Of a stretch of DNA of 64,000 nucleotides, positions 3,848 to 61,680 are shown piece by piece. The stretch spans positions 1,798,001 to 1,862,000 of the forward strand of contig JASTWF010000048.1 of assembly GCA_030390025.1 (NCBI GenBank), in the 5' to 3' direction. The notes below the pieces were generated by a model. It ran no database searches. It was given only the letters and a program-made list of their open reading frames with translations, and had not been told where the DNA came from. The stretch is from Squalus acanthias (Eukaryota). The position numbers were made by a program, and so were the translations under genes. The first letter of the stretch is position 1. Every line of letters begins with the position of its first letter.

Positions 3848-5074
3848 TGATAGCATATGAAACTTAAGGATCACATGACAGTAATCCGAAATTGATAGGT
3901 TCAGGACAAGTAATCTGACCGCTTCGCATCTGTCTTTAAGGTGTATAAATCTGTATTGTTTTCATCAATACTTTGGTATTCTGTGCTGAGAACTCCCCTG
4001 GGTTGGTTAGGAGTTCGAAGTCCCCGATGGATAGCCTACTTGTAAGTGTATAGACGTCTAACCTTACTTCTACTTTCTGTCGCTATTAAGAAAAACAACA
4101 AGTTGTTTTATTACTGGCATGGGAACCGATATAATTACGATTAATCTGATTTTTTGATTTAACAGCGAAGCCCCTTTCCTCCAGGAAAGATGGATGATCG
4201 GGAGAAGCACTGCTGAATTTCCAGGATATTCCCCTCACTTTTCTGCAGTGGTGATACTTAAGACTAATATATCAGTTAGTAGGAATGCACACGGTGTCAT
4301 TTGCATTGAAATAGGCAGATAGAAAATGGAAGAATCAGCAGTAAATTATAAGTTTGTTGATTCTAATTCCGAGAGAAATGCGTTCCAATCCAGATGGACT
4401 CATGGGCGAATTCTCCTCTGTGTGTTGGTTGTAAGCTTCAGTGTGGATCGCTCTCAATCAATCAGAGAAAAATTCTCGAGCAATACATATTGAGTAGAAA
4501 GACTTGCCCAGTAATTTTGTTCGTTATTGTTCTTTCCTATCGACGCTTGCGCAGATAACTTTACAACAAAAACAATTTGCATTGATATAGCGCCTTTAAT
4601 GTAGAAAAACAACTTAACAGAACGAACTACAAAGTTATCACACAAAATTTGACAGCGAAACACATAAGGATAGATTAGAACAGATGACGTAAATCTTGGT
4701 CGAATAGGTAGGATTTAAGGAGTGTCTTAAAGTAGGAGAGAGAGGTAGAGAGGTTTAGGCATTCGATAATTTCATAGATTATGGCTTAGCCTGCTGAAGT
4801 CGCGGCCCCCAATGGTGGTGAGATGGAAATCGGGGATGCAAAAGAGGTCCGACTAGGAGGAGTGCAAAGATCTCGGGGGGTTGTAGAGCTGGAGAAGGTT
4901 ACACAGATAGGGAGGGGAGGGATTTGAACCCGAAGATGAGAATTTTATAGTGGAAGCGTTGCTCAACTGGGAGCCAAAATATATCGTCGAGCACCGAGGA
5001 GTTGGGGAGAATGGGACTTTATTCGATGGAGAATTTTCGCATAGATCCCCTGAATTCTTATAAAACTTTTTTAA

Positions 5075-5656: not shown

Positions 5657-5663
5657 CACTGTG

Positions 5664-6943: not shown

Positions 6944-7020
6944 GGTTGAAACCATCGCATTCCTCTGGATCTGGTTCAGGGAGTTTTTGTCACAGAGAGG
7001 CTGTGTTTTCACACGCCTTG

Positions 7021-8104: not shown

Positions 8105-8186
8105 GTTTAGTTCCTGTACAAGGACAGAATGGTCCTTTCTCCGCCGGAGTGTCGGATTATATTTGAAGTGTCATATACTGAAGTCA

Positions 8187-15639: not shown

Positions 15640-16940
15640 AGAGATATTCAAGGCAAAAGTGGATGGTAATGGGACAGGTTAAGAAACAAAGGATGGCTCT
15701 AGATGACGTGTAAATGGCACTGGCAGAAAGAAAAACAGCTGCCATGTGGGAGAGAAGAACAGAACAAAAGTGTGGATAAAAAATATATATATGTGTAGGG
15801 GCTGGGGTTATGATCTGAAATTGTTGAACTCTATGTTGAGTTCAGAAGGCTAAAAAGTGCCTTATCGAAAGATGAGGTGCTGTTCCTCGAGCTTACTCTG
15901 AGCTTCCGTGGAACAATGCAAGAGGACAAGGACGGTGAGGTCTGAGTGGGAGTGGAGCGGTGAATTAAAGTGACAGCGACTAGAAGCTCGGGGTCTCCCT
16001 TACGTACAGAACGGAGGTGTTCCCCAAAGCCGTCACCCAATCTGCGTTAGGTCTCCCCAGTGTAGAGGAGACCACATCGTAGGCAACGAATACAGTATAC
16101 TAAATTGCAAGAAGTACAAGTAAATCGCTGTTTCACCTGGAAGGTGTGTTTGGGGCCCTGGACAGTGGGAAGTGGGGAGGTATAAGTGCATGTTTTGCAT
16201 CTCCTGCGCTTGCAAGGGAAGGTGCGGGACGAAGGGGAACGGGTGTTTGGGGCGAAAGAGGAGTGGGCTAGGGTGTCGCGGAGGGAGCGGTCCCTATGGA
16301 ATGCTGAAAGGGGAGGTGAAGGGAAGATGCGTTTGGTGGTGGGATCACGCTGGAGGTGACGGAAATGGCGGAGGATGATCCATTGAAAGTGGAGGCTGGT
16401 GGTGTGAAAGGTGAGGACAAAGGGAACTCTATCATGGTTCCGGGACGATGGGGCAGTGGTGAGGGCAGAAGTGCGGGAGATAGAAGGTACACGGTTAAGG
16501 GCCGTGTCAAACAGTGTAGAGGGGAATCCACGGTTGAGGAAAAAGGAAGACATGTCGGAAGCGCTGGTATGGAAGGTGGCATCGTCAGTGCAGATGCGGT
16601 GGAGACGAAGAAACTGGGAGAATGGAATAGAGTCCTGACAGGAGTCGGGGTGGGAGGGATTATAGTCCAGGTAGCTGTGGGAGTCAGTGGGCTTGTAGTA
16701 AATGTTTGTCAATAACCTATCCCCAGAGATGGAGATGGAGAGGTCGAGGAAGGGAAGGGAAGAGTCGGAGATGGACCATGTGAAGGTGAGGGAAGTGTGG
16801 AAATTGGAAGCTAAGTGAATGAAATTATCTAGTTCAGGGCGAGAGCAGGAAATTACACCGATACAGTCATCAATGTACTGGAAAAAGAGGTGAGGGAGGG
16901 GACCTGAGTAGGACTGGAAAAAATAGTGTTCCACATATCT
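15640..16940 (-). mobile_element. Penelope-like retroelement fragment (RT plus GIY-YIG endonuclease)
   Basis: ORF 16047-16997: YIDDC, LPFLD, IYYKPTD, FTCTS.NLVYCI.C..C..LYTGET. Downstream frame has FGEHLRSV. Confidence 0.9.
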
Positions 16941-19387
16941 CACAGAGATACTGCGAGGACCAAGGAACAGACTTAAGATGACGTCATCTGTGGCCAAGCG
17001 GTTCCAAAGACCAAGGGCCGCGAGAAACTCGTTAAAACTATCGCCTAATGTTCAGTATTCATGACGCTGTAAGCTTAATAAATCTTGATCTATCGCTCAA
17101 ACATACTGGCTGCTGCCTATTGGTGTCATGTCCAAGAACTCAGTGATCGTTTAAGATCTTACAAGGAATTGGACATAAACTTGAAGAGGAAAAAAACGGG
17201 GCTGTGGGGAATGAGCAGGGGTGTGGGAATAATTGGATAGGAGAGGCCAAAACTAGGGACCATAAGTATAAGATCGATACTAATAAATCCAATAGGGATC
17301 TCAGGAGAAACCTCTTTACCCAGAGAGTGGTGAGAATGTGGAACTCGCTACCACAAGGCGTGGTTGAGGGAAGTAATATAGATGCGTTTAAGGGGAAGCG
17401 AGATAAACACATGAGGGAGAAAGGAATACAAGGATATGTTGACAGGGTGAGATGAAGGAGGTTGGGAGATGTCTCGTGGGGGACTAATTGGATCGCTCTT
17501 TCAAAAAGCCGGCACGGACTGGACTGACTGAGTAGCCTCCCTCTGTGCTGTACGATTCCATGATTCTGTAAAACGCGGATCATTTTTGGGTCAAGGTTCA
17601 GCTTTCAGTTCCCATCTGCACAACGAGAATTAAAGGGTTAAGTTCTTCGCTGAGCTGAACTTCAAGTTTCTTTGAAAAAAACACTTCAAAAGGCGCCAAG
17701 ATGCTGACAGAGAAGTGGGTAAACGGTTTTCAACAGATGTTGTACCCGCCGTCAGGGGGCAGGTGTCTCAGTGAAAAACATATCTGGGGAGGCATCTCGC
17801 CTTTGTACAGCATGAAACATTCGTGACACGTTTAAGGGTTCGAAGATGAATTACATCCTATGTGTATGGGGCTGTTCGCCTCAGTGAAGGCTGAGAGGAG
17901 ATTTACCAGAATGGTACCAGGGATGAGGGACGTCAGTTATGAGAGACTAGGGAAGCTGGGATTGTTCTCCTTAAAGCAGAGAAGGTGATTGGAGATAATA
18001 TTGAGATTTGTTTTTAATTTATGGGATGTTGCCGTCGCCGGCAAGGTCGGTATTTATTGCTCATCCATAATTGACATTGAGAAGGTGGTGGCGAGAAGCA
18101 TTCTTGAACCGCAAGAGGGCAGGTAAGTGAACCAGATGTTTTTTTTCGACAGTCCGGTAGTTTCATGGTCATTATCACTGACTCTAGCTTATTAATTCTA
18201 GATTTACTCAATTAACTGGAATTAACTTCCCCAGCTGCCGTGGTGGGATTTGAATTCATGCGTCTGCAACATTCTCTATCCCTCGCTCCCTCTCTCGATC
18301 CCTCTTCTTCTCTTTTCCTCGCTCCCAATCTATCCCGCTATTTATCCTTCACGCTCCCGCTATCTGGTAAGCAGATGTAAAATGACTAGTAATCTCTGAC
18401 AACTCCTCAAACCCTCTGATTGCCAGCGCCACCCCTCACTCTCTGATTCCGAGCCCTGCCGCGCCGTCTCTGATTGACAGGTCCGCCCCGCCCCTCTCTG
18501 ATTGACAGCTTCAGCCGACCTATCTGATTGAAAGCTCCACCCTCGCTCTCTGATTGACAGCCCAGCAACGCGCTCTCTGATTCGCAGCCCTGACTCTCTC
18601 TCGCTGTTTGACAGTCCCACCCATCCCTCTCTGGTTGGCAGTGAGTAGCGCAGACGAGGACAGGAAGTTGCAAAGGGGACAGAGAGAGATTAATTGAGTG
18701 AGCAAAACAGTGACAGATGGATTCATAGTGGGAAAGAGTGTCGTCATCCACCTGGGACCGAATAAGGATAAATCAGATTATTTCTATACGGAGAGGAACT
18801 TGAAACGGAGGTATTTTAGCAATTTCATAGACTGATGAGGGACGTCAGTTATCAGAGATTAGGGAAGTTGGGATTGTTGCCCGTAAAGCAGAGAATGTTA
18901 ATCGGACATTTTCTCCTTTTACATCTGCTTACCAGATATCGGGAGCGTGAAGGATAAATAGCGGGAGGGATTGGGAGCGAGGAAAATAGAAGAAGAGGGA
19001 TCGAGAGAGAGAGTGAGGGATAGAGAGAAGAAGAGGGATAGTGAGAGGGAGCTAGGGAGAGAGAGAAGAAGAGGGATAGAGAGGGAGCGAGGGAGAGAGA
19101 GAAGAAGAGGGATAGAGAGAGGGAGAGAGGGAGAAGAGGGATAGAGAGGGATCGAGGGAGAGAGAAGAAGAGGATAGAAAGAGGGAGCGACAGAGAGAGA
19201 AGGAGACGGAGTGACAGAGAGGAAAGGCGTTGAGGGTGAGAGGCGGATGAGAGGCAGAGAGATAGGGAGAGATGTGACGCGAAAACGAGAGCAGGCAGGT
19301 TTAGAGAGTGACCGGGAAAGAGACCGACTGAGAGATAGAGTTGACGAAGGGAGAGACGGAGTGAGAGATTTACAACGATTTATGCAT

Positions 19388-25670: not shown

Positions 25671-26389
25671 TGTGCTTAATAGTTTGCACAAGAGAAATGA
25701 ACTAGATTTTGTAACAAGAATCTGCTCTCCCGGCAGCTGCGTCGCAGTTTTTTCGAAATGCAGTTCTGTTTGATTGACAGCTGCAGCCCGCTCACTACAA
25801 GCCCCTGCTCCTTGCAGTCTGATAGACAACTGATGATCCATCGCCTCCACCTCGACCCTCCCGGTTTCTCTTCTCTAACGAGGTCGCTCAACCCTGGTAA
25901 CATTCTGATAAATCGCCCCTTCACCTCATCTGCTCAAAGGAGAACAATACCAGCTTCTCTGATCTCGCGACACAACTGATATCCCTCGATCCTGGTAACA
26001 TTCCGCAACATCTCTTCGGAACCCTCTTTGAGGCCTTGACATCCTTTCTAAACTGTGTTTGGATACAACACTTCATCTGGGTTTGGGGGAAATTGTTTCT
26101 CAATGCTTAATCATTAAAACAAATCGAACGTTGTTATCAGAACGTTGTTGCTCAATTAAATTCTTGCACAGCACCAGAAATAAAGCAGCAAGTTGGAGAA
26201 TGTTGTAAAGCATTGTGGCTGTGAGATGCACTCTGGTGGGTGCTGTTTTTTGAAACAAAGTATCACAAGGTATTTACAGCACAGAAGCAGGACATTCGGC
26301 TCAACCGGTCCATGCCGGTGTTTATGCTGCACACGCGCCTCCTCCCAACCCCCTTCACCTGACCACATCAACATACCGTTCTATTCATA

Positions 26390-28670: not shown

Positions 28671-29077
28671 TTTTCTCTCTTTCTTTCCTGCTTCCTCTGC
28701 TTCTCTCTCTCTCTCATTTTTTCTCTTTTTCTTTCTTTCTCTCTCTCATTTATTTCTTTCATTGTCGGGAAATGGAAAGGATACAGAACCAGCGGATTGG
28801 ACCATTAAGGGGAACTTTAGTTCAGCGGCGGCATTGCTCATTCGGTGCCAAATCATAGAGTGGCGTTGGATTCAATGGAGTTACAGCTCCATTTAGTGGC
28901 TACATCGTGCAACTACAAGCACCTGGGACTTGGGTTTTTTCCCAGTGTAACCGGTAACGTAAGTTTTCTCAAGTCAAATCTTGAAATAGATCCGCCTTCC
29001 AACTTCCTCCACTGCTTCAGATACTGATGTGAGAAGTTGCACAACACCAGGTTATAGTCCAACAGCTTTATTTGAAA

Positions 29078-29114
29078 TCACAAGCTTTCGGAGCGCTGCT
29101 CCTTCGTCACGTGA
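29078..29114 (-). ncRNA. Hammerhead ribozyme copy with a core mutation (CUGA to GUGA), probably inactive
   Basis: TCAC-GTGACGA-A-GGAGC(AGC)GCTCC-GAAA-GC-TT-GTGA. Confidence 0.7.
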
Positions 29115-29574
29115 AGTCAGATACTGACATTTGTTTTATGGAATTACATAGAATATGCCGTTTGGCTCAACGGGTCTGTGCAGGTGTTTATGCTCCACAC
29201 GACCCTGCTCCCACACCTCTTCAACTCACCCTTTCAGCATATACTTATGTTCCTTTCTCCCTCGTATGTTTAACAAGATTCCCCTTAAGTGCATCTCTGC
29301 TATTTGCCTCAACCTTTCCCCGTGGTAGCGAGTTCCACACACTCTGTGTAAAGAAGTATCTCCTGAATTCCTTTTTGGATTTATCAGTGACTATCATCTT
29401 GCTCCTTGATTTTGTCTCCCACACAAAGGGAAAGATCTTCTCATCGTCTACCCTATCAAATATTTCATAATTGTAAAGACATCTATTAATTCATCCTTCA
29501 GTCTTCTCTCTTCTAGAGAAAAGAACCCCAACCTGTTCAGATTTTGCTGGCAGATATAACCACAACGTACACTT

Positions 29575-35549: not shown

Positions 35550-37020
35550 AAGAACTAGCATTTCTTTAGCGCCTTCCACTTCCCCATGACGTCTCAAAGC
35601 AAATTATATAGTTTTGAAGTGTAGTCGTTATTGTAATGTAAGAAATGCGGCAGCCAATGTATGCACAGCAAGCTCCCAATAACGGAAGTGAAATAAGTGA
35701 ATACAAATGCTGTATTGGTGATGATGGTTGAGGGATAAACATTGGCCAGAACTCGTCTGCTCTTCTTTAAAATAGTGCCAGGGAATATTTTACGTTCACA
35801 GGCGGGGACTGCATCTCAGACACTGCAGAGATCCCTCAGTACTGCAATTCCGACACTGCAGAGCTCCCTCAGTACTGCCCATCCGACTGTGCAGCACACC
35901 CTCAGTACTGCCCCTCCAACAGTGCAGCGCTCCCTCAGTACTGCCACTCCGACAGTGCAGCGCTCTCTCAGTACTGCCCCTCCGACAGTGCAGCACTCCC
36001 TCAGTACTGCCCCTCCGACTGTGTAGCGCTCCTTAAGTACTGCCCCTCCGACAGTGCAGCACTCCCTCAGTACTGACCCTCCGACAGTGCAGCACACCCT
36101 CAGTACTGCGCCTCCGACAGTGCAGCACTCCCTCAGTACTGCCCCTCCGACAGTGTAGCGCTCCCTCAATACTGCCCCTCCGACAGTGCAACACTCCCTC
36201 AATACTTCCCCTCCGACAGCGCAGCACTCCCTCAGTACAGCCCTCCCGAGAGTGCAACGCTCCTGTATCTCCCAGAGTACTGCTCATCTTCAGTACTGCC
36301 CCTCCGTCAATGCAGCGCTCCCTCAGTACAGCACCTCCGACAGTGCAGCAGTCCCTCAGTACTGCCCCTCCGACGGTGCAGCAATCCCTCAGTACTGCCC
36401 CCTCCGACAGTGCAGCACTCCCTTAGGACTGCCCCTCTGGCAGTGCACCACTTCCTCAGTACTGCCCCACCGATACTGCAGCGCTGCCGCAGAACTGCCC
36501 CTCAGATAATGCAGCACTCCCTCAGTACTGCTCCTCCGACAGTGCAGCGCTCCCTCAGTACAGCCACTCCGACAGTGCAGCACTCCCTCAGTACTGACCC
36601 ATCCACAGTGCATTCAGTCCCTCAGTACAGCCCTCCCGAGAGTGCAACGCTCCCTGTATCTCCCAGAGTACAGCTCATCTTCAGTACTGCCCCCTCCGAC
36701 AGTGCAGCGCTTCAACACTGCCCCTTCCGTCAATGCAGCGCTCACTCAGTACTGCCGCTCCGTCAATGCAGCGCTTCCTCAGTGCAGCCCCTCCGACAGT
36801 GCAGCAGTCGCTCAGTACTGCCTCTCCGACGGTGCAACAGTCCCTCAGTACTGCCCCTCCAGCAATGCCGCGCTCCTTCAATACAGCTCTTCCGACAGTG
36901 CAACCTTCTCTCAGTATTGGCAACTGGGAAGTGTCAGCTGGATGTTGGCGCTCACTTGACTGAAGTGGGACTTGAACCCACGATCCATTGACTCAGTGGC
37001 CGAGCATGTTATTCTGATTG
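35550..37020 (-). mobile_element. Deu-type SINE with expanded 33-bp minisatellite (~35820-36920)
   Basis: Reverse-complement of the same head, array and tail. Confidence 0.8.
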
Positions 37021-41899: not shown

Positions 41900-42910
41900 G
41901 CAATCGGGGATCTAGCTCTGGAGAGATGTTTGTGGGTTCGAGCCCTACTCCAGAGACTTGAACAATTAACGTAGGCTGACATTTTCGCACTGTCAGCGGG
42001 GCAGTACTGAGGGAGCGCTGCACTCACAGAGGGGTAGTACTGAGGGAGTGCTGAACTGTCGGAGGGGAAAATATTGAGGGAGTACCGCACTGTCGGAGGG
42101 GCAGTACTGAGGGAGCGCTGCAATTTCGGAGGGACAGTAATGAGGGAGTGCTGCACTGTCGGAGGGGCAGTACTGAGGGAGCGTTGGACTGTCGGAGAGG
42201 CAGTACGGAAGGAGTGCTGCGCTGTCGGAGAGGTAGTACAGAGTGAGTGTTGCACTGTCGCAGGGGAAATACTGAGGGAGTACTGCACTGTCGGAGAGGT
42301 AGTACTGAGGGAGTGCCGCACTGTTGGAGAGGCATTACTGCGTGAGCGCTGCACTGTCGGAGAGATAGTACTGATGGAGTGCCGCACTGTCGGAGGGGCA
42401 GTACTGAGGGAGTGCTGCACTGATGGAGAGGTAGTTCTGAGGGAGCGCTGCACTGTCGGAGGGGAAATACTGAGGGAGTGCCGCACAGTTGGAGGGGCAG
42501 TACTGAGGGAGCGCTGCACTGTCAGAGAGGTAGTACTGAGGGAGTGCTGCATTGTCGGAGGGACAGTACTGAGTGAGAGCTGCACTGTCAGAGGTGCCAT
42601 TTTGCATGTGATGTCAAACCGAGGCCTCGTCTTCTATCACAGCTGGAAGTAAAACATCCAACTGACACTATTGGAAGAAGAGCAGGTGAGTTTTTCCTCG
42701 TGACAATGAAACATCAATAAAACAACAGAATATCTGGTCATGACCGCATTGCAGTTTCTTGTGATCTTCCTGTGGGAAAATTGACGGCCCCGTTTCCTCA
42801 GATTAAAAGAGTGACCAGACTTTGAATAACGTGCTTCATTGGCTGGGAAGCGCTTCGTGAAGCCCTGAGGTCGTAAAAGGCGCTATAGAAATGCAAGTTA
42901 TTTCTTTCCT
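41900..42910 (+). mobile_element. Deu-type SINE with 33-bp minisatellite (~41990-42600)
   Basis: Same head, array and tail; ends just before the V12 nonamer. Confidence 0.8.
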
Positions 42911-49000: not shown

Positions 49001-50800
49001 ACAGGGGTCTATAGGGGGAGGAGCTAAACACGATCAAAATCACTAAGGAAGTGGTACTCGGTAAAATAATGGCACTCAAGGCGCATAAATCACCCGGACC
49101 TGATGGCTTACATCCTATGGTCTTGAGGGAAGTGGCGGTAGGGATTGTGGATGCATTGGTAATAATTTTCCAAAACTCCCTGGACTCAGCAAAGATCCCG
49201 GCAGACTGGAAAAATGCTAATAAAGCACCCTTATTTAAAAAGGGCAGTAGACAGACGGCTGGAAACTATAGACCGGTTAGCCAAACATCTGTGGTAGGTA
49301 CAATTTTGGAGTCCATTATTAAGGAGACAGTAACGGGACATTTGCTTAATCATAATTGAATTGGACAAAGTCAGCATGGTTTTATGAAAGGGAAGTCATG
49401 TTTGACAAATTTGCTGGAGTTCTTTGAGGAAGTAACCTACTGGGTGGATAAAGGTGAACCAGTGGATGTGGTGTATTTAGACTTCCAAAAGGCATTTGAC
49501 AAGATGCCACACAAAAGATTATTGCTTAAGATAAAAAATCACGGGATTGCGGGTAATATTTTGGCATGGATAGAGGATTGGCTATCTAACAGAAGGCAGA
49601 GAGTTGGGATAAATGGTTCATTCTCAGACTGGCAATCAGTAACTAGTGGTGTTCCGCAGGGGTCAGAGCTGGGTTCCCCAACTCTTTACAATCTATATTA
49701 ACGATTTGGAGGAGGGAACCGAGTGTAACATATCAAAGTTTGCAGCTGATACTAAGATGTGAGGGAAAGTAGTGCGTGAGGAGGACATAAAAAATATGCA
49801 CGGGGACATAGACAGGCTAAGTAAGTGGGCAGAGATTTGGCAGATGGGATACAATACTTGAAAGTGTGAGGTTATGCACTTTGGTAGGAAAAATAGTAGA
49901 GCAAGTTATTATCTTAATGGCAAGAAACTGGAAAGTACTGAAGTACAAAGGGATCTGGGGGTCCTGGTGCACGAAACTCAAATCGTTAGTATGCAGGTGC
50001 AGCAAGTGATTTAGAAGGCCAACGGAATGTTGGCTTTCATTGCTAGGGAAATAGAATATTAAAATAGGGAGGTATTGCTTCAGTTGTACAAGGCCACACC
50101 TGGAATACTGCATACAGTTTTGGTGTCCATACTTAAGAAAATACATACTTGCTCTCGAGTCAGTACAAGGAAGATTCACTCGGTTAATCCCGGGGATGAG
50201 GGGATGGACATATGAGGAGAGTTTGGGTAGATTGGGACTCTACTCATTGGAGTTCAGAAGAATGAGAGGCGATCTTATTGAAACATATAAGATTGTGAAG
50301 GGGTTGGATCGGGTGCATCCGGGGAGGATGTTCCCGATGATGGGTGAAACTAGAACTAGGGAGCATAGTCTTAGAATAAGGGGCTGCTCTTTCAAAACTG
50401 AGATGAGAAGGAACTACTTTACTCAGAGGGTGGTAGGTCCATGGAATATGCTGCCCCAAAAAGATGTAGAAGCTACATTATTACATAAATTTAAAACAGA
50501 AATTGACAGTTTCCTGGAAGTAAAGGGAATTAAGGGTTACGGGGAGCGGGCAGGAATTTGGACATGAGTCAAGGTTCGGATCGGTCATGGCCCTGTGGGT
50601 AGCGGAGCGGGCCCAGGGGCCGTGTAGCCTGATCCTGCTCCGATTTCGTGTGTCCAATTCTGTTAGGTTCAGGAGATGGTTCTGTGATAGTAGTTTGGCG
50701 GTTAGGATCAGATCAGCCATGATCTTATTGAACGGCGGAGCAGGCTCGAGGGGCGAATTGGTCTACTCCTGCTCCTATTTCTTATGTTGTTATGTTCTTA
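46091..50800 (+). mobile_element. Near full-length degenerate CR1 LINE (ORF1 Cys-rich/coiled-coil/esterase; ORF2 APE endonuclease plus RT)
   Basis: ORF1 pieces C.MWE..ICDKC and VVGDSII; ORF2 pieces YLNARSI, ITETWL, VYRPP, MGDFN, KSPGPDG, NYRPVS, LDFQKAFD, GVPQGS; CR1 3' end ..GCTCCTATTTCTTATGTT. Several frameshifts and stops. Confidence 0.92.
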
Positions 50801-50814
50801 TACATCTCTTCACT

Positions 50815-50851
50815 TCACCTGACGAAGGAGCAGCGCTCCGAAAGCTTGTGA
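50815..50851 (+). ncRNA. Minimal type I hammerhead ribozyme (Penelope-type)
   Basis: TCAC-CTGACGA-A-GGAGC(AGC)GCTCC-GAAA-GC-TT-GTGA: intact core, stem II, stem I pairing TCAC/GTGA. Confidence 0.85.
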
Positions 50852-52393
50852 TTTCAAATAAAAATGTTGGACTACAACCTGGTGTTGTGCGACTTCTCAC
50901 ATTTGTACACCCCAGTCCAACACCGGCATCTCCACATCATATAGATTTACAGCACAGAAGGTGGCAACCTGGCACATCTTGTGCGTGCCGGCCGACGAAG
51001 AGCTATCCACCCAAATGCCACTTTCCAGCACTTGGTCCACAGCCTTGTAGGTTACGGCACTTCAAGTGCATATCCAAGTACTTTTCAAATGTGACGATGG
51101 TTTCTGCATCTACCACCCTTTCAGGCAGTGAGTTGCCAGAACCACACCACCCTCTGGGTGAAAATAAATTCTCCTAAAATCCCCTCTAAAACCTGCTACC
51201 AATTACTTTAAATGTATGTCCCCTTGTTATCGGCCCTTCTGCTAATGGAAACAGGTCCTCCCTATCCACTCTATCTCGGCGCCTCATAATTTTATACACC
51301 TCAATTAGGACTCCCCTCAGCCTCCTCTTTCCCACAGAAAACAATCCCAGCCTTTCCAATGATTCCTCATAACTAAAATTCCCCAGCCACATCCTCGTAA
51401 ATATCTCTAGTGCAATCACATCCTTCCTGTAATGTGCTGACCAGCACTGCACGCAGGATCTAGCTACGGCCTAACTAGTGTTTTATAAAGTTCAGGTGGC
51501 CAAAAGTTTGATGAAAGAGGTACGTTATAAGGAGGAGAGATTGTGGGATTCGTTGAAAGCGAGAATTCCAGATCTCAGGGCTTAGCCAGCTGAAAGCACA
51601 GCCGCCAATGGTAGTTAACATCTTAATCACAAAATGCAAATTTGACTGGTGCAAGTTGTATGACTCGTCGCTCATTTGGTAGCTCTCACGACTCTGAGTC
51701 AGAGGGTCGTGGGTTCAGGGCCCGCTCTAGGCACATAAGAACAAATATCTAGGCTGACACTCCTAGTGAGGTATTGAGGGAGCGCTACACTGTCGGAGGG
51801 GCAGTACTTCCGGAGCACTGCACTGTCTGAGGGACTGTACAGATGGAGCGCTGCATTGTGGGAGGGGGCTTACTGAGAGAGTGCTGCACTGTTGGAGGGG
51901 CGATTCAGAGGGAGCGCTGCACTGTCGTAGGGGCAGTACTGAGGGAGCTCTGCACTGTCGGATGGGTAGTACTGAGGGAGGGCTGCACTGTCGGAGGGTC
52001 ATTATTGAGCGAAAGCTGCACTGTGGGAGGGGCAGTACTGTGGGAGCGCTGCACTGTCGGAGGCGCAGTATAGGTCAACATTTATCGCTCAACCAATATC
52101 ACTAAAACAGTTTATCTGGTCTTTATCACATTGCTGTTTGTTGCAGGTGCTGTGCAAAGATTGGTTGCCGTCTTTTAAACAATACAACGGTGAGCAGACT
52201 TCAAAGAACGTACTTCGATGGATGATAAGTGTTTTGGGACGTCCTGAAGTCGTGAAAGACGCCGTAGAGATGCAAATTAGTTCGCTCCAAAAGTGAGCTG
52301 CCCAGAGGGTGCTGGATCACAGCTGGCGATGAGCGCACGTTGAGAGGGTGTCAAGGTTTTTGTATCAGTCTGCGGCAGCTTTGTGTCGCTGTG

Positions 52394-53041
52394 CGATACT
52401 CGCCGCACAGTAATAGGTCGCAGAGTCTGTCAGCTCGGAGCCTTTCAGCTGCAGACTGAACTGGTTCTTTGCTAGGTCGAGTTTCACTTTGAATCGATTC
52501 TCGAAAACCGGCTCGCAGCTGCCGAACTCATTGCAAATCCACTGTATTGCCTCTCCCACTTGCCTCCACCAGTGCATGGCATGGCTGCCCATGCTCGCTC
52601 CCTCCAAACTGCACATGAAAGTGAACGGCTTTCCCTGGGGAATAGAGGCCACGGCTGGAGACTGGATCACAGTGGGTGCAGCCCGAACCCCTGGATGAGG
52701 TTTAAACAAAGAAAATAAGTTAGAATCATAGAAGGAAGATCGTAGCATAAAATCGTCGAATTTTACTGCACAGAAGCAGACCATTCCGCTACTTTGAAAG
52801 AGCTCTCCAGTTATTCCCACTTCCCTACAGCCCTTCAAATACCCACACCAATCCCAGCACTCAAGCATTGATCCAATTCCATTTTGGAAGTTATTATTCA
52901 ATCTATTTCCACTCGTATATCAATGCAATTTCTTTCTTTTACTGTTTGCAATTGATATGTCAATGCATAGTACTTACAACAGATCAAATGTCCGAGTGAT
53001 AAGGTGACCAAGATTAAGAACATTCTCGCTGAGAAACACAT
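52394..53041 (-). CDS. V1': paralog of V1, apparently functional (leader 52978-53041, V exon 52394-52690)
   Basis: Open V exon ending YYCAASI. RSS CACAGCG (52387-52393)-23-ACAAAAACC (52355-52363). Confidence 0.9.
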
Positions 53042-55737
53042 CGCCCTTCCCCGGGGATGACAGGCAGCTTTACTTAGCGACAACGTGTCAGCTGCACAAT
53101 TGCTCTCCTCAACGGTGCTGCCACCGGTGGTGATGAATTACGCGGGAGGACTGAGCAGCCAATCGTCTGCTTGGACCACCCATGTCAACAGTATGAACAA
53201 ATGAGAAGCATTTCCTTTGATAGCATTGTTTCTGCTAAATTATGTACGTAGGTGGAAGATCGTAGCGTCAAATCGTTGCATCTTACCGCGCAGAAGGAGA
53301 CCATTCGGCCCATCGTGCCTGTGCAGGGTCTTTGAAAGAGCTGTCCAATTAGTCCCACTCCCCTGCTCTTTCCGCATAGACCTGAAACAATTATGTTTGG
53401 TAATACTAGGGAAATGGGCTGGGTTATGAAATCAGTCTTTCTTACTGACTTGTTTTGCCTTCTTTTTTTCCCACTTTGCATTCCTTCTTTCTTTCTTTCC
53501 TTCTTTTTTTCCTTCTTTCTATTCGACGTTTCTTTCTGTCTTATATTCATCGGTCTTTCCTTCGTTCTGTCCCTTCCATTCTTTCTGTTGCTTGTAGTCA
53601 GCTCCGATCTCATACTATGATGGACTTGAAGTTACACCACCCTTTCCCACCATAACTTGAACGCGAGAGGGACGTGCAGGAGAGTGTATAACATCACAGA
53701 GTGTTAGAATAGCACAGTGCAGGAGAACGCCGTTCGGAATATTGAGTATGCGCCGGTTCATACGAAGGGCACTCCCTCGCTTTTTCCCCGTAACCCTGCA
53801 ATTTTTTCTACAACAAGCATTTATGCAACTCCCTTTCGAAAACGACCATTGCATCTTTATCCACCACCCAATCAGGTGGTGTATTCTAAATACTAAGCAC
53901 TCGTTGCGTAAAAAAGATATTCCTCATGTCGCCTCTGGTTGTTTGGCCAATCACCTTACATCTGGGCCCTCTGATTATCGACCCTTCAGACATTGGAAAC
54001 AATTTCTCCCGATTTACTCTTCGAAAATTCTTCATGATTTTAAACACCTCTGTCAAACCTGCTCTCGGCCTTCTCTGCTCTAAGGAGAACAACAACAGCG
54101 TGCACAGGCTATCCACGTAACCTTATCCCTAGAACCATTCTTGCCAATCTCTTCTGTGCCCTCTCCAAAGTATTCACGTCCTTCCTAAAGTGTTGTGCCG
54201 AGAATTGGGCATAATACTCTACATGGGGCCGAACTGTTGGTGTATATGGGATTAGCCTAACTTGATGGCTTTTGTACTGTATGACTCTATTTATAAAGCC
54301 ATCTGCTTTATTGACTGCTTTGTTAACTGTCATGTTGTGTCCTGTCTCTTTCAAAGATTTGTCCCAAAACACCTCCAGGTCTATATCTCCTTGCACCCCC
54401 TTTAAATTTATATTATACAGCAGGTATTTAGCATGTAATATAACGGTAAAACATGCTTCACAATACTGACATTAGTATTAATGTCTTTGTAATATGAGCA
54501 TCTATCCTAACATAAGCACGAACATCCGAATTAGGAGCAGAAGGAGGCCACTCGGCCCTTCGAGCCAGCTCCGCCATTCAATAAGATCATTGCTGATCCG
54601 ATTACTCCACATTCCCGCCTACCCCGATATCTTTTCACCCCCTTGCTTAACAAGAATCTATCGACCTCTGCCTTAAAAATATTTAAAGACTCTGCTTCCA
54701 CCGCCCTCTGAGGAAGAGAATTCCAAATACTCACGGCACTCTGTGAGAAGAAAATTCCCCTCATCTCTGTCTTATGTGGGCGACCCCTTATTTTGAAACA
54801 TTGACGCCTCGTTCTAGCTTCTCCCACAAGAGGAAACATCCACTCCACATCGACTCTGTCCAGACCCCGCAGGATCTTATATGTTTCAATCAAGTCACCT
54901 CTTACTCTTCTAAACTCCAGCTGATAGAAGCCTAGCCTATTCAAACTTTCCTCATAAGACAACCTGCCCATTACAAGTATTAGTCTAGTAAACCTTCTCT
55001 GAGCTGCGTCCAGCACATTTACATGCATCTTTAAATAAGGAGACCAATACTGTACACAGTACTCCAGATGTGGTCTCACCAATGCCCTGTATAACTGAAG
55101 CATAACCTCCCTACATTTGTATTCAATTATCCTCGCAATAAACGATAATATTCTATTAGCTTTCCTAATTACTGTGTTATAGAGGCTAACAGATAGATTA
55201 GATTTGGACTTTAGCATTCCACAGTCCAAAGCTAAGCAAGCAGGAGGCATCGCGCATGACACTGTATTTGTGTAAAGAATTATAGCCAAGTTTGGAGAGA
55301 GCATGTTTACATTTCAACTGTTAGTTACCTGGTCAAATTTGATATGTATAACATTTTGCTAAATTATTGAAAAATCCAGTGAGACTGGAATAGACGTAGT
55401 GCAACCTCGCCATCTACTGGCGTGATAGCATATGAAACTTAAGGATCACATGACAGTAATCCGAAATTGATAGGTTCAGGACAAGTAATCTGACCGCTTC
55501 GCATCTGTCTTTAAGGTGTATAAATTTGTATTGTTTTCATCAATACTTTGGTATTCTGTGCTGAGAACTCCCCTGGATTGGTTCGGAGTTCGTAGTCCCC
55601 GATGGATAGCCTACTTGTAAGTGTAAAGACGTCTAACCTTGCTTCTACTTTCTGTCGCTATTAATAAAAACAACAAGTTGTTTTATTACTGAGAAGTCGC
55701 ACAACACCAGGTTATAGTCCAACAGATTTATTTAATT

Positions 55738-55775
55738 TTACAAGCTTTCGGAGCTGTCGCTCCTTCGTCAGGTAA
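55738..55775 (-). ncRNA. Minimal type I hammerhead ribozyme within a 95-bp insert
   Basis: TTAC-CTGACGA-A-GGAGC(GACA)GCTCC-GAAA-GC-TT-GTAA. Confidence 0.85.
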
Positions 55776-57329
55776 TCTCCACATCATGTTTTATTACTGG
55801 CATGGGAACCGATATAAATAGGATTAATCTGCTTATTTAATTTAACAGCGAAGCCCCTTTCCTCGGGGAAGGATGGATGATCAGGAGAAGCACTGCTGAA
55901 TTTCCAGGATATTCCCCTCACTTTTTGCAGTGGTGATACTAAAGACTAATGTATCAATTAGTAGGAATGTACACGGTGCCATTTGCATTGAAATAGGCAG
56001 ATAGAAAATGGAAGAATCTGCTGTAAATTACAAGTTTGTTGATTCTAATTCCAAGAGAAGTGCGTGCGATTCAAGATGGACTCACGGGGCGGATTCTCCT
56101 CTGTATTTTGGTTGTAAACTTCAGTGTGGATGGCTATCAATCAATCACAGAACAACTCTCGAGTAATCTGCTTTGAGTAGACAGACTTGCTCAGTAATTT
56201 TAATGGTTATTGTTCTTTCCTATAGACGCTTGCGGAGATGACTTTACAACAAAAACAATTTGCATTTATATAGCGCCTTTAATGCAGAAAACCCAACTAA
56301 CACAACCAACTACACAGCTATCAGACAACATCTGACAGCGAAACACAAGGATAGATTAGGACAGGTTACGTAAATGTTGCTTGAATAGGTAGGATTTAAG
56401 GAGTATCTTAAAGGAGGAAAGAAAGGTCGAGAGGTTTAGTGATTAGAGAATTTCATAGATTATGGCTGAGCCAGATGAAGTCACGGCCGTCAATGGTGGA
56501 GAAATGGAAATCGGGGTCCGCGTAGGAGGAGTGCAGAGATCTCGGAGGGTTGTAGAGTTGGAGAAGGTTACACAGATAAGGAGGGCAGGGATTTGAACAC
56601 AAGGATGAGCATTTTAAAATGGTAGCGCTGCTCAACTGGGAGCCAAAGTATATCAGCGAGCACCGAGGAGTTGGGGAGAACGGGACTTTATTCGATGGAG
56701 AGTTTTCACACAGATCCCCGGAATTCTTATGACACATTTTTAAAATTCGTTCATGGGATGTGGGCATCGCTGGCAAGGCCAGCATTTATGGTCCCTTCCT
56801 GATTGCCCTTGAGAAGGTAGTGGTGTGCCCTCTTCTTGAAGCGCTGCAGTCTGTATGTTGAAGATGCTCCCACAGTGCTGTTAGGGAGGGAGTTCCAGGA
56901 TTTTGATCCAGTGGCGATGAAGGATCGGCGATCTACTTCTAAGTCAGGATGGTGCGTGACTTGGAGGGGAACTTGGAGGTGGTGGTGTTCCCATGCGCCT
57001 GCTGCCATTCTTCTAGATGGCAGACGTCGTGGGTTTGGGAGGTGCTGCCGAAGAAACCTCGGCGAGTTGGTGCATTGCATCTTGTAGATGGTACACACTG
57101 CAGCCACTGTGCGCCGGTGGTGGAGGGAGTGAATGATTAAGGTGGTGTAATGGGTGCCAATCAAGCGGGCTGCTTTGTCTTGGATGGTGTCGAGATTTTT
57201 CAGTGCTGTTGGTACTGCACTCATCCAGGCAAGTGGAGAGTGTTCCATCGCGCTCCTTACTTGTGCCTTGTAGATGGTGGAAAGACTTTGGGGAGTCAGG
57301 AGGTGAGACACTCGGCGCAGAACACTGTA

Positions 57330-57629
57330 CGCATCCTCGCTGGCCCCACAGTAATATATTCCGCTGTTCAAGACCAGGGTGTTTATCAGGTACAACGTGA
57401 AAGTGTTATTTTTAGGCTCGTAATAGACCTCAGTACCTTTTTCTGTAGTTAGATGCAGGAAGTACAACGGATCTGATCCAATCCAGGCGTTCCACGATCT
57501 GCACGTACCAGGCCAACCAATAGTTACTCATGTTGCCCTGCCCGATGCCGCAGTAGAACACGGCTTCCTCCCCTGGGACCTGGATGATGTCTGACGGGAT
57601 CTGGACGAGGAGTCGTTGGGAACGGACAT
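57330..57629 (-). pseudogene. V2': paralog of V2 pseudogene
   Basis: Same frameshift (RKRY*) and same LINE in the RSS; heptamer further decayed to TACAGTG (57323-57329). Confidence 0.85.
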
Positions 57630-58684
57630 CTGAATGATTATTTAAAAAACATTCAGGCAGATCGATCGTGACAGGACAATAGGGGGTGGCAGGCAGTATG
57701 AAATGGACTGCGGCAGGAGAAGAAGAGAGGGAAAAGGAAAGAAACAATTTACTTTCCTCAAGTTGCGGTGCTAACTTCTCGCTTATATTAACTCTACAGG
57801 TTAAGTCCAATTATACGTCGGGTTTATTGAACTGATAAAATTATAATGGCGTCAAACTAATAAGGGAAAACTAGAAATACATGCTAACTGAATCTGGATC
57901 TGAAAGATCTTAGAAGGAAACTAATTAATGTAAGATTCTAGAGACCGTAATATAACCGCTGCTACCGTGAGGTGATCGAGGTGCAGAACGAAATGTGAAA
58001 TGAGGTAGAGAAATGAAGAGAATGTGAGAGAGTGAGTGATAGAGGCAGAGAGAGAGGCAGGGAGAGACAGACAGATAGAGACAGAAAGACAGACACAGCG
58101 ATAAACATAGCTAGAAACACAGAGAGAGAATGAGAGAGAGAGTCGAGACACACAGAAATGGTGGTAGAAAAAAATGAGAGCGACAGAAAGACAATGAGTG
58201 AGTGGGAGAGACAGACTGAGCAAGACAGCTATAGAGACAAGATAGAGTGAAAGAGAGAAATACAGACAGAGTGGTAAGGCAGAGATAAGGAGAGCGAGAG
58301 CGAGAGAGAGATGGTTAGAGAGAGAAAGAAAGGCAAGAGAGAGAGAGAGAAAGCAATTTTACAAACAAAATGAAAGCTAACTATTTTTAAAATATCGATC
58401 AATTCTCGGCTACATTAGAAATATTGGAAGTTAGAGCAGAAGCGTTTTCTCCACCTAACAACGTCGAGATTCTCACAATGTTTACGTGAAGTTAGCATCT
58501 AGTGGATCAAATGGGAAACATCGCGATCTGCGCGGAATGAATGAACGGTCGGGAGGAAACTTCTGGGTGTTCGCGGGTGTCGAAGGGCCACAGCGCCACC
58601 ATCTGGCTGTTGAAACCATAGCATGCCGTTGGTTCTGGTTCAGGGAGTTTTTGTCACAGAGAGGCGGTGTTTTCACTCGCCGTG

Positions 58685-59767
58685 CATCACTGCACGCGCA
58701 GAAGTACACGGCGGTGTCGGACTGAGAGGCTCCGGTGAGTTCCAGAGTAAACTCGGTGTCGCTGTGTCTCAGGGCTTTAAACGCTCCGGAGGTGTAATTT
58801 GAAACGTGGTCGGTCCCAGCTGAATGGAATAGAGCAACGAGTTCCCGGCTTGTCCCTTGTCGGTACCAGTACATGTCGCGATAGTTACTGTTCCTCAGGA
58901 TACATCTCATTACGACCGATTTTCCTGAGCCAACGGACACAGTTTGCGGCGACTGGTCAACGAACGAAGCAGACACTTCTGTCAAATGGAGGAAAGAGTC
59001 AGATTTGTTTTGATAGAATGATACAGTACAGAAGAAGGCCATTTTATCCATATTGCCTGTACCGGCTCCTTCAAAGAGCTTTCCATTTGACCCACTTCCA
59101 ATAACTTCTTTCCTCATAGTACAGCAATGTTTACCATCTTAGGTATGTACCCAATTCCCGTTTGAAACTTACTATTGAATCTCCTACCACCACACTTTCA
59201 GGCTGTGCATTCCAAAAAACAACTCGCTGTGCAAAAGAAATTCTCCTCATCTCCCGACTGGTTCTTTTGCCAGACACCTATAATCTGTGTCCTCTGGTTA
59301 CCGACACTCCTGCCAGTGGAAACATTATCTCCTTATTTACTCCATAGAAAGCCCTCATAATTTTGAACACCTCTATTAAATCTCCCCTTAATCTTCTCTT
59401 CTCCAAGGAGAAAAAATCCAGCTTCTCCAGTCTCTCCGTGTAACTGAACTCTCTCATTCCTGGTACCATTCCAGTAAATCTGATTTCATTGCCTCCAAGG
59501 CCTTGACATCCTTGGCCTGTGTGATGCCCAGAACTGAACACACTAGTTGATCTGATGCATCACCAGTGTTTTATAAAGGTTTAGCATAACTTCATTGCTT
59601 CTGTACTCTATAAAAGTAGGAATTATAGTTTCGTGGATTAAACCAGCCTAATCATAGAAACTATTGTTAAATATGCATTGTGTTCCGACGTTCTGATTGG
59701 CGCATTGTTTAAACTTACCTGAAATTAAAGCAAGCGACAAAATTAAATATGGCACTTCAGGAAACAT
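58685..59767 (-). CDS. TRBV: V3': paralog of V3, apparently functional (leader 59719-59767, V exon 58685-58978)
   Basis: Leader MFPEVPYLILSLALIS; V ends YFCACSD. RSS CACGGCG (58678-58684)-23-ACAAAAACT (58646-58654). Confidence 0.88.
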
Positions 59768-59849
59768 GTTTAGTTCCGCTACAAGGACAGAATGGTCCTT
59801 TCTCCGCCGGAGTGTCGGATTATATTTGAAGCGTCATATACTGATGTCA

Positions 59850-61680
59850 CGTGTCAGCCGTGGCTCAGATAGTGCTGTCGACACTGAATCAGAAGGCTGG
59901 GGGTTCGAGCCCCACACAAGAGACACAAACACATAATTCAGGTCGACACTGCGCGCACCCGTACTGAGGGAGCTCAGCATTGTCAGAGGGGCAGTACTAA
60001 GGATGCGCGGCACTGTCAGAGGGGCAGTACTGAGGTAAGACTGCACTGTCAGAGGGGAAGTACTGAGGAAACGCTGCACTGTCAGAGGGGCAGTAATGAG
60101 GGAGCTCTGCACTGTCAGAGGGGCAATACTGAGGGAGCGCTACACAGTCGGAGGGGCACTACTGAGGGATCGCTGCACCGTTGGAGGGGCATTACAGAGG
60201 GAGCGCTAAACTGTCGGAGGGGCAGTAGTCAGGGAGCACTGCACTGTCAGAGGGGCATTACTGAGTGCACGCTGCACTGTCAGAAGGGCAATACTGCGGA
60301 AGCGCTGCACTATCAGACGGGCTGTACTGAGGGAGCGCTGCACTGTCGCAGGGGAACTACTGAGGGAGCATTACACTGATTGAGGGGCAGTACTGTGGGA
60401 GCTTTGCACTATCTGAGATGCAGGACTGAGGGAGCGCTGCACTGTCGGAGGTGCATTAATGAGCGAGCACTGTACTGTCGGAGGGCAGTACTGAGGGAGC
60501 GCTACACAGTCGGAGGGGCACTACTGAGGGATCGCTGCACCGTTGGAGGGGCATTACAGAGGGAGCGCTAAACTGTCGGAGGGGCAGTAGTCAGGGAGCA
60601 CTGCACTGTCAGAGGGGCATTACTGAGTGCACGCTGCACTGTCAGAAGGGCAATACTGCGGAAGCGCTGCACTATCAGACGAGCTGTACTGAGGGAGCGC
60701 TGCACTGTCGCAGGGGAACTACTGAGGGAGCATTACACTGATGGAGGGGCAGTACTGTGGGAGCTTTGCACTATCTGAGATGCAGGACTGAGGGAGCGCT
60801 GCACTGTCGGAGCTGCATCAATGAGCGAGCACTGTACTGTCGGAGGGGCAGTACTGAGGGAGCGCTGCACTGTCGGAGGGGCAGTACTGAGGGAGTGCTG
60901 CATTGTGGAAGCGGCAATACTGAGTGAGCGTTTCACGGTCGGAGGAGCAGTACTGAGGGAGCGCTGCACTGTCGGAGGGGCAGTTCTGCGGGATCGCTTT
61001 ACTATCGAAGGGGCACCACTGAGGGAGCGTTGCACCGTCGGACATGCAGTACTAAGGGAGCGCTGCACTGTCACAGGGGATGGACTGAGGGAGTGCTGCA
61101 CTGTCAGAAGGGCAGTAGCGAGGGTGCGCTGCACTGTCGGAGGGGCAGTTCTGAGGGAGCATTGCACTGTCGGAGGCGCATTATTGAGTTTGCGTGCACT
61201 GTCAGATGGGTAGTACTGAGGGAGCGCTGCACTGTCGGAGGGGCAGTATTGAGTGTGCGTGCACTGTCAGATGGGCAGTACTGAGGGAGCGCTGCACTGT
61301 CGGAGGGGCTGTTGTGAGGGAGTGCTGCACTGTCGGAGGCGCAGTATTGAGTGTGCATGCACTGTCAGATGGGTAGTACTGAGGGAGCGCTGTACTGTTG
61401 GAGGTGCCTTCTTTCGAAAGAGACGTAAAACAAGGCCCTGTCTGCCCACGGACACTATTGGAAGATGTGCAGGGGCATTCTCCCCGATTTCGTGTAACAA
61501 TATATTGACTAATCATGTATCTTATTGCTGTTTGTGGGAGCTTCCTGTGCAAAAACTGTCTGCAAAGTGTCCTACGTTACAACAGACTATACTTCAAATG
61601 TTTTTCTTTGGCCGTAATGCGCTTTGGGACGTCCTGTCGTCTTGAACTGTGCTATAGAAATGCAAGTCTTTCTTTCATTC
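59850..61680 (+). mobile_element. Deu-type SINE with ~1.45-kb 33-bp minisatellite, including a ~362-bp higher-order duplication
   Basis: Variant-unit order starting at 60141 is repeated from 60503. Confidence 0.8.

Follow-up and report, generated by a model that had tools for sequence, protein, structure and literature searches.

The 95-nt insert designated c55, which lies between two TSD copies near the right end of a 64-kb stretch of Squalus acanthias DNA (the window), is a pair of head-to-head pieces of an abundant Penelope-like element (PLE) 3′ end, probably twin-primed on an uncut RNA and dead on arrival. Its layout is that of the published inverted pLTR with a one-sided tail and TSD, at minimal size, and the insert displays the features of an EN+ PLE insertion: a pLTR end with a minimal hammerhead, a one-sided tail, an inverted 5′-truncated arm and a TSD. 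An earlier note had described a TSD-flanked insertion by Penelope-like machinery carrying a textbook minimal hammerhead, a description to which the TSD, the two arms and the hammerhead parse all conform.

Insertion site and anatomy of the insert

The TSD is a 13-mer, TGTTTTATTACTG, with three occurrences in the 64-kb window (55679–55691, 55787–55799 and 4104–4116), while 13-mers repeating at a 108-nt offset are found at two positions across the whole window. Flanks on both sides are paralogous, at 94.5% identity on the left (1–4116 versus 51599–55691) and 86.8% on the right (4104–9443 versus 55787–61108), and the single copy at 4104–4116 confirms that the insert is missing from the paralogous site. 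Contigs from related organisms in sequencing runs X1 and X2 also skip the 108 nt, an empty joint at this place. The further claim that the insertion is young is plausible, but the comparison with the paralogue is by itself insufficient to show this, because the right flank is 12–13% diverged. Placement of the TSD edges is ambiguous, by 2 nt at the left and 1 nt at the right, since the TSD overlaps element sequence.

Table 1. Coordinates of the insert, its target site, its sister copies and the PLE coding fragment in the window
Feature	Position	Strand	Remarks
Left TSD copy	55679..55691	+	final 2 nt (TG) match the element too, likely priming microhomology
Right TSD copy	55787..55799	+	
Empty paralogous target site	4104..4116	+	13-mer in single copy
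Inverted arm	55692..55775	-	PLE pLTR end; 5′ end at hammerhead stem I (55775), 3′ end that of the pLTR (55692); corresponds to c50 50815-50897
Direct arm	55775..55786	+	last 12 nt of the element tail; corresponds to c50 50928-50939
Minimal type I hammerhead	55738..55775	-	stem I 55775-72/55741-38; core 55771-65; extra A 55764; stem II 55763-59/55754-50; GAAA 55749-46; palindromic AAGCUU; predicted cut between 55742 and 55741
Sister solo stub c29	29028..29116	-	89 nt, without tail; TCAC/GTGA type; core C3 mutated to G
TSD of c29	29017-29027 and 29117-29127		11 bp
Sister copy c50	50800..50940	+	pLTR end with full ~41-nt tail; TCAC/GTGA type; Inr-like TCACTTC at 50810-50816
Decayed Neptune-type PLE RT / CX4CxxC / GIY-YIG fragment	15810..16943	-	physically unlinked to the stubs

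Alignment to the sister copy c50 establishes the anatomy that had been proposed, an inverted hammerhead unit followed by a short direct tail, the 3′ ends of both arms pointing outward. Position 55775 is common to the direct and inverted arms and T55787 to the direct arm and the TSD, and at the three joints the shared sequence amounts to 2, 1 and 1 nt. Insert positions 1–82 match both other window copies at 87.8%. The match of the tail to the Penelope end, previously placed at about 50930–50940, is real but is more exactly ATCTCCACATCA(T), 12–13 nt, the direct tail with the first TSD base matching c50 50928–50940 over 13 nt. None of 20,000 random 14-mer draws from the window reached this length (best 11 nt), where draws that fell within N runs or within any of the three copies were left unscored. 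Examination of sequence and structure found no palindrome at the central joint. Selection for structure over the full 95 nt was rejected (z −0.44, against −2.81 for the hammerhead part alone).

The hammerhead and its stem I swap

Read on the minus strand, the c55 hammerhead parses as TTAC-CTGACGA-A-GGAGC-GACA-GCTCC-GAAA-GC-T-T-GTAA, with an intact core, an extra nucleotide at 9/10.1, a G10.1–C11.1 pair and a palindromic 15.2–16.2, features of the minimal PLE form taken from the available part of PMC4209133. An Rfam search returned no hammerhead match at E values up to 1, and the minimal form may fall outside the Rfam models; the sole weak match (26350–26465, E 0.31) is unrelated. Cofolding two c55 copies predicts an intermolecular AAGCUU duplex (−25.1 kcal/mol, versus −22.8 for two monomers) with stem I open.

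The two sister copies differ from c55 in stem I, TCAC/GTGA instead of TTAC/GTAA, and in a stem II loop of 3 nt. Parses of c55, c50 and c29 thus uphold the reported swap of a U-A for a C-G pair; the companion statement, that the stem II loop differs while the core is intact, is correct for c55 but fails for c29, in which the core is broken (C3 to G), so that two of the three window copies retain an intact core. The swap is one event among three sequences, reached in 159 of 500 shuffles, and 7–10 randomly placed substitutions left core and pairing unbroken while creating a compensated pair in only ~0.5% of 200,000 trials per setting. That it is a junction artefact was rejected, because the parents match through 55775. 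Hammerhead cleavage was likewise rejected as the source of either insert end. The predicted cleavage site lies inside the insert, a monomer, 45 nt from one end; since the insert spans this site, the RNA template would have been uncut. The hammerhead is likely a passenger from the TTAC/GTAA subfamily, predicted to cut only as an AAGCUU dimer, if at all. Cleavage of minimal monomers was undetectable (PMC4209133, in the part available), and eight of nine Xenopus dimers showed none (10.64898/2026.07.22.740005, available in part).

Sister copies and candidate parents

No two of the three window copies share a structure; each is single rather than part of a tandem array, and their tails range from ~41 nt in c50 through the last 12 nt in c55 to none in c29. 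Recurrence of ~90-nt stubs, another earlier claim, is corroborated by c29, which is 89 nt long with an 11-bp TSD; around c50 the search for a TSD gave nothing clear, and nothing beyond a 6-mer. The PLE coding fragment at 15.8–16.9 kb of the window, for which Pfam and NCBIfam supplied no name, was rejected as the parent of c55 because no pLTR match lies beside it.

The pLTR-end pattern was found in 0 viral and 0 metagenome contigs, and the hammerhead pattern in two metagenome contigs and 0 viral ones. One of these (L002) has a c55-like hammerhead ~750 nt downstream of a CX3CxxC and GIY-YIG frame, which matches the window PLE fragment (E 5e-07) and has no match in Pfam or NCBIfam. The other (L001) has such a hammerhead beside an inverted RT piece (RVT_1, E 1.5e-05, below the cut-off) that gave no match to the window fragment. 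In both contigs the hammerhead closely resembles that of the shark pLTR and the remainder only loosely, and no open reading frame is tied directly to the shark pLTR. By visual inspection, L002 and the PLE fragment of the window, neither of them an established parent of c55, both appear to have the Neptune/Nematis CX2-5CxxC linker preceding GIY-YIG.

The subfamily in related sequencing runs

Family comparisons draw on contigs from related organisms' runs rather than the Squalus acanthias genome (best word share 0.21); five of 21 candidate runs were examined (X1, X2, X6, X9 and X21, with X1 covered at 55%), and run contigs drop rare variants. In these runs TTAC/GTAA is an abundant PLE-end subfamily. 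Contigs in which the TTAC parent extends further upstream number 20 in X2, 11 in X1 and six in X6, 30 letters of the upstream sequence being displayed, and linkage of the TTAC and GTAA arms within single contigs not being displayed. Because subfamily sequence continues upstream, the stem I and loop II variant appears inherited rather than selected within a mini-element.

The joint between hammerhead and 12-nt tail behaves otherwise. Summed depth in the bin containing it (55780–55789) is 43, 31 and 0 in X2, X1 and X6, respectively, against 278,987, 226,031 and 9,802 in the preceding bin. Amplification of the joint was accordingly not found in these three runs, and it is absent among the 18 loose-end rows listed of 135. 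Loose 3′ ends of X1 contigs on c50 fall at 50899 (24 contigs), 50904 (24), 50909 (21) and 50940 (94), two tiers ~41 nt apart among the 19 rows listed (195 further), of which the inner one (50899–50909) may include subfamilies diverging there. In two X1 contigs position 50812 is joined to 50909 on opposite strands, the c55 layout with a 32-nt tail, at a summed depth of 166 compared with roughly 10–70 for X1 flank contigs; judging from such depths, some opposite-strand joints may recur or be copied. Family contigs are also present in X9, guessed to be an RNA run but unable to reveal a discrete small RNA, and in the raw-read run X21 only 14 reads were placed, too few for end statistics.

The 5′ ends point to a possible further regularity. 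Position 50812 occurs in 3 of 13 joint rows, c29 starts at 50812/50813 and c55 at stem I, and upstream consensus rows of X1 and X9 (nine contigs each; agreement 0.68 and 0.72) show TATATATG at a distance of 30 nt upstream from the A in TCACTTC, evidence for a TATA/Inr-like start that comes from the TCAC subfamily, c55 itself being TTAC. Since the 5′ ends gather at stem I, beside this putative start, the ~90-nt stubs are perhaps fixed-length run-off cDNAs. Tentatively, the ~90-nt and ~130-nt shark PLE stubs could be strong-stop-like cDNAs of defined length, made from two internal RT starts with run-off at an RNA 5′ end whose position is fixed by a TATA box (−30) together with an initiator lying 3 nt ahead of stem I; c55 would then be the extreme of this class, a single RNA having been primed from both target ends. 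The earlier note had set its proposal against a continuum of random truncations, and here the result is divided: the joints do vary, but the 5′ ends seem clustered at stem I, so that a pure random continuum is perhaps not what the copies form.

Mechanism of insertion

According to the twin-priming model, a GIY-YIG endonuclease would make a staggered cut leaving 3′ overhangs of 12–13 nt. One overhang would prime RT at an inner start site (the pLTR end, c50 50897–50899) and be extended by ~84 nt to, or near, the RNA 5′ end, and the other would prime at an outer start site (the tail end, 50940) and stop after 12 nt. The two cDNAs would then be joined through the 1-nt overlap with loss of ~28–30 intervening tail bases, and the gaps filled. 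With less support, the ~90-nt size may recur because the RNA begins a few bases before stem I.

Precedents exist for the separate elements of this scheme. A PLE unit may consist of an inverted 5′-truncated copy, a one-sided 30–40-bp tail and an 8–10-bp TSD (PMC3846280 and PMC8557442, both available in part), its tail reaching from one internal RT start site to the other, with RT running to the template 5′ end and hammerhead cleavage dispensable (PMC11167929). Twin priming yields inverted arms with microhomologies at every joint (PMC2912911, in the part available). Against the model, microhomologies of 1–2 nt are weak and frequent by chance, the ~28–30 nt missing between the arms exceed what simple twin priming needs, and PMC3846280 prefers to explain head-to-head joints by self-priming on an antisense template.

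Alternative explanations

A chimera of inverted arm and tail might have been made elsewhere and its read-through RNA retroposed whole from the tail end, c55 being a second-generation copy. Sequence can be mobilised in trans by PLE pLTR ends (PMC3846280), one opposite-strand joint exceeds single-copy depth, and simple 5′ truncation at a 2-nt microhomology could have produced the left boundary. This is nonetheless unlikely, as that boundary falls on the inner 3′ end tier (50897–50899), which priming explains and truncation only through chance, and no joint-bearing contig occurs among the matches listed.

Another proposal is that the 95-bp unit belongs to a self-propagating, ribozyme-only non-autonomous family of ~90–95 nt, retrozyme- or SINE-like, transcribed, hammerhead-processed and re-inserted by PLE proteins. 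Two of the three window copies (89 and 95 nt) are indeed TSD-flanked and begin within 2–3 nt of stem I, c55 combines an intact core with a compensated pair, and non-LTR retrozymes have been proposed as PLE pLTR derivatives with dispersed monomers, a chondrichthyan case included (10.64898/2026.07.22.740005, as far as available). Against this, the unit does not run from cleavage site to cleavage site, the predicted cut being internal, nor is it tandem; its variant is common to longer parents and its joint unamplified in three related runs; the c29 core is dead; and a TATA box placed 30 nt ahead of the start would leave the stubs without their promoter. The cleavage reports cited above for monomers and Xenopus dimers weigh in the same direction. 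Retrozymes are tandem head-to-tail units, each with a type I hammerhead, whereas all three window copies are single, and a SINE-like family would comprise many copies with the same ends and joint, in place of which three copies show three structures. With an inherited variant, a joint unamplified in the related runs and a monomer straddling the cut, the proposed family is not borne out for c55 and must be judged very unlikely.

Scarcely probable, finally, is single priming at the tail end, after which RT, 12 nt on, would have jumped or folded back to an antisense or already copied pLTR strand; the same holds for a free ~84-nt cDNA captured while the cut was repaired. Head-to-head joints of PLEs have been ascribed to self-priming and template jumps (PMC3846280), and the very short 12-nt arm resembles an aborted start, but the joint lacks a palindrome, and priming from both ends fits the clean 12–13-bp TSD, where bases matching the element stand at either target end.

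Relation to known systems

The nearest relatives of c55 in layout are Pen2a_Av/Pen2_Av of Adineta (PMC3846280; scheme in PMC8557442, Fig. 2; each available in part), with which it shares head-to-head arms, a one-sided tail, a TSD, a small joint overlap and a pLTR hammerhead. It differs from the Adineta unit, as far as those sources go, in having neither open reading frame nor direct pLTR between the arms, the direct side being reduced to the 12-nt tail, in its longer TSD (12–13 versus 8–10 bp) and in a joint without palindrome. The putative hammerhead itself has a helix II of 5 bp, compared with 7–8 bp in the Schistosoma minimal hammerhead, and U as H17.

PAc, a Poseidon element of Anolis (Frangieh et al. 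2024, PMC11167929), likewise shows two 3′ end tiers one tail-length apart, an AT-rich target and an uncut RNA template. PAc, however, belongs to the Poseidon clade and its hammerhead overlaps the ORF start, whereas the CxxC linker read in the L002 frame and in the PLE fragment of the window points to Neptune/Nematis, and inverted products were not modelled in that paper. Non-LTR retrozymes (Cervera and De la Pena 2020, PMC7229834; Li et al. 2026, 10.64898/2026.07.22.740005) are, in the portions available, also non-coding, related to PLE pLTRs and equipped with a type I hammerhead, and dispersed monomers occur; they are tandem repeats, mostly of 150–450 bp, processed to circular RNA, in contrast to the single, internally inverted 95-bp piece described here. 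Outside PLEs, 5′-inverted L1 insertions made by twin priming (PMC2912911, partly available) share with c55 the inverted 5′ arm, the direct 3′ arm, outer and inner microhomology and the TSD, but c55 has no poly(A), both its priming points are apparently element-defined, and RT and endonuclease are different.

Implications

Solo minimal hammerheads, inverted pLTRs and one-sided tails have all been published already for Penelope-like elements; c55 is a clean test case because it combines an empty site with three readable joints. A self-propagating ~90-nt ribozyme unit, if real, would stand near the short end of published retrozyme-like units (consensus 51–972 bp in the part of the literature available), and the evidence points away from it. 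Were the stubs instead of defined length, these very abundant pieces would be a genomic read-out of the PLE integration cycle, and if transcription begins where stub 5′ ends lie and RT begins at their two 3′ end tiers, joint counts in shark genomes would test twin priming against self-priming without cloning.

Architecture of the insertion and its target site

The 13-mer TGTTTTATTACTG occurs in identical copies at 55679 and 55787, either side of the 95 nt of the insertion c55, and a third time at 4104. Since the flanks align and the 13-mer is single there, 4104–4116 represents the empty paralogous site, confirming the TSD and single-copy site proposed in the earlier note, which had also rightly described an inverted hammerhead followed by a direct tail. 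Insert positions 1–82 match the two other window copies, c29 and c50, at 87.8%, and the last 12 nt with the following T reproduce the end of c50, a match length unreached in 20,000 random draws. The 5' ends of the two arms abut centrally and both 3' ends point to the target. The final two bases of the left TSD extend the element sequence, the first base of the right TSD extends the tail, and base 55775 is common to both arms. On the minus strand the hammerhead parses cleanly, with TTAC/GTAA in stem I and a loop II of 4 nt, whereas c50 and c29 carry TCAC/GTGA and a 3-nt loop II, the same contrasts to which the earlier note had drawn attention. The predicted cut, between 55742 and 55741, lies within the long arm, so that the template RNA would have been uncut there. 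PLE hammerheads are reportedly cleaved as dimers, according to a 2017 study.

c55 targeted the right arm of an AT-rich inverted repeat that is itself weak (55662–55688 and 4087–4113; −3.4 and −2.9 kcal/mol predicted from RNA parameters), and the TSD of c29 is itself near-palindromic (TCAG-ATA-CTGA); near-palindromic targets under both TSD-bearing stubs (n=2) may be chance. c50 is flanked (50780–50965) by two facing 3' tails, apparently of other repeats, which we take to be of CR1/SINE type.

Arms of c55 and sister copies of the Penelope-like element (PLE) end
Feature	Window position	Matching c50 positions	Orientation	TSD	Remarks
c55 long arm		50815–50897	inverted		sequence match
c55 short arm		50928–50939	direct		sequence match
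c29	29017–29127 incl. TSDs			11 bp	89-nt solo stub without tail; core C3 mutated
c50	50800–50940			no clear TSD found	full tail of ~41 nt

Related organisms

No sequencing run shares half of the c55 locus words, and with a best share of 0.21 all runs are taken as relatives. Assembled contigs aligned to c50 in runs X1 (7,337), X6 (1,098) and X9 (2,235), with 14 raw reads from X21, and to the c55 locus in X2 (5,412), X1 (5,219) and X6 (452). Contig depths, when summed, do not measure copy number, and joint and end figures hold among the rows listed, making these comparisons coarse tests. X1 and X2 show an empty c55 site (a joint skipping 108 nt), although flank contigs with mixed letters imply several paralogs, so that orthology of this empty site is not certain. 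Among the rows listed, contigs leave c55 at 55775 into further upstream sequence (X2 20, X1 11, X6 6) and at 55773 into TCAC-type upstream sequence (X2 17, X1 10); both stem I types therefore occur as ends of longer sequence. The hammerhead-to-tail joint bin has depths of 43, 31 and 0, against 278,987, 226,031 and 9,802 in the preceding bin (X2, X1 and X6, respectively), and the joint is absent from the 18 loose-end rows listed of 135 in these runs.

On c50, the 3' ends listed in X1 fall at 50899, 50904, 50909 and 50940. An opposite-strand joint, 50812–50909 (two X1 contigs), has the same layout as c55 but a tail of 32 nt, and a second joins 50827 to 50865 (one contig); thus the layout recurs and the joint differs. 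X1 joints skipping 135–136 nt at c50 are a possible empty site. At c50 position 50847 (hammerhead position 17), C replaces U across 28% of the X1 depth, and the marine metagenome contigs L001 and L002 have A; the AGCU palindrome is kept, the behaviour expected of an H position.

Genomic setting and age

V exons of the immunoglobulin superfamily are arrayed on the minus strand of the window (10 of 13 tryptophan-motif rows; Pfam V-set matches in two of six frames scanned), and from these and the repeat types we infer a T-cell-receptor-like locus of cartilaginous fish. c55 is intergenic, on the 3' side of the V exon near 58.9 kb and ~3 kb from it. Between V genes run long minisatellite arrays of 33-bp units, some in each orientation (8200–9450, 35800–36920, 41990–42600, 59960–61410). 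An Rfam HDV-like ribozyme match over a repeat tail (26350–26465, minus strand; E 0.31, under the gathering score) is probably chance.

The left paralogous flank (1–4116 with 51599–55691) aligns at 94.5% and the right (4104–9443 with 55787–61108) at 86.8%, identity stepping from 91–99% left of the c55 site to 87–89% within ~20–100 nt to its right. Such a step suggests that the V-gene duplicons later underwent conversion or crossover over a tract ending near the site. Neither the paralog nor any joint listed for the relatives carries the insertion, and its two TSDs are identical, in keeping with the view that it postdates the duplication, but given such a tract that view is valid only for the older divergence. 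In the relatives' contigs no position listed inside the insert has an alternative letter in more than 48% of depth, against three c50 positions with one in 86–100%, a contrast that fits a younger c55.

Insertion mechanism and stub length

From the geometry, overlaps, empty site and two 3' tiers in relatives, we consider it likely that c55 arose by a staggered cut at the target, after which both overhangs would have primed on sense RNA, one at the inner and one at the outer start site, the second arm aborting at 12 nt and the arms joining through a 1-nt overlap. PMC11167929 describes PLE RT starting at two internal sites bounding the tail, products shortening as the template loses 5' sequence, and hammerhead mutants inserting normally in vitro; PMC2912911 attributes inverted arms with short microhomologies to twin priming. 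Against twin priming of c55, overlaps of such shortness are weak, ~28–30 nt are missing between the arms, and one X1 joint stands above single-copy depth. Self-priming on antisense RNA is an alternative for head-to-head PLE joints, and is preferred in PMC3846280.

The ~90-nt stub length could, tentatively, reflect stubs beginning at the RNA start, on a TATA/initiator basis taken from the TCAC type, c55 being of the TTAC type. The consensuses used were TATAWAWR and YYANWYY. The TCAC-type upstream consensus has TATATATG at 50782–50789 (X1 and X9, a run guessed to be RNA; agreement 0.68 and 0.72), and the window has TCACTTC at 50810–50816, its A, at 50812, being 30 nt downstream of the TATA start by hand count. 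c29 starts at 50812/50813 in c50 coordinates, at the predicted initiator A, and 50812 is present in 3 of the 13 joint rows listed. Published examples include a TATA and TCACT pair in an Adineta pLTR, the PLE terminal repeat (PMC3846280), and an internal promoter without TATA in D. virilis Penelope (PMC2377424).

Parent element and relation to known systems

The window holds a decayed, probably Neptune-type PLE RT/GIY-YIG fragment (15810–16943, minus strand), beside which no hammerhead pLTR was matched. A hammerhead scan of metagenome contigs returned L001 and L002. In L002 the hammerhead (1330–1362) follows, by ~750 nt, a frame (48–581) with a CX3CxxC linker and GIY-YIG-like domain that matches the decayed fragment (E 5e-07); in L001 (1–1050) the pLTR follows an inverted RT piece (RVT_1, E 1.5e-05). 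Their hammerhead is near-identical to the TCAC type and the remainder of the pLTR only loosely alike, so they show the kind of element, not the parent of c55; they may come from some other animal and belong to a related PLE family. The linker is of a CxxC type that marks Neptune/Nematis PLEs (PMC8557442) and would point to that group rather than to Poseidon.

c55 is a real insertion, of an already known PLE kind. Its layout is that of the EN+ PLE insertion unit as outlined in PMC3846280 and PMC8557442, of which it is the smallest form, and it differs from non-LTR retrozymes in lacking the tandem arrangement that marks them in PMC7229834 and preprint 10.64898/2026.07.22.740005. The joint, which varies in relatives, and the non-tandem structure speak against the proposed family of ~90-nt ribozyme-only units, which is considered unlikely. 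Top-ranked results from open-licence literature included no report of shark PLE stubs of comparable size.

Across the three window sequences, one of nine stem pairs, in stem I, has changed at both of its positions and no pair is disrupted; 159 of 500 shuffles equal the observed covariation, and under a substitution null ~0.5% of trials keep the core intact and compensate a pair. The compensated pair is uninformative on a stub-level life cycle. The covariation is probably due to hammerhead selection in parent lineages, as likewise published for PLE min-HHR families (PMC4209133).
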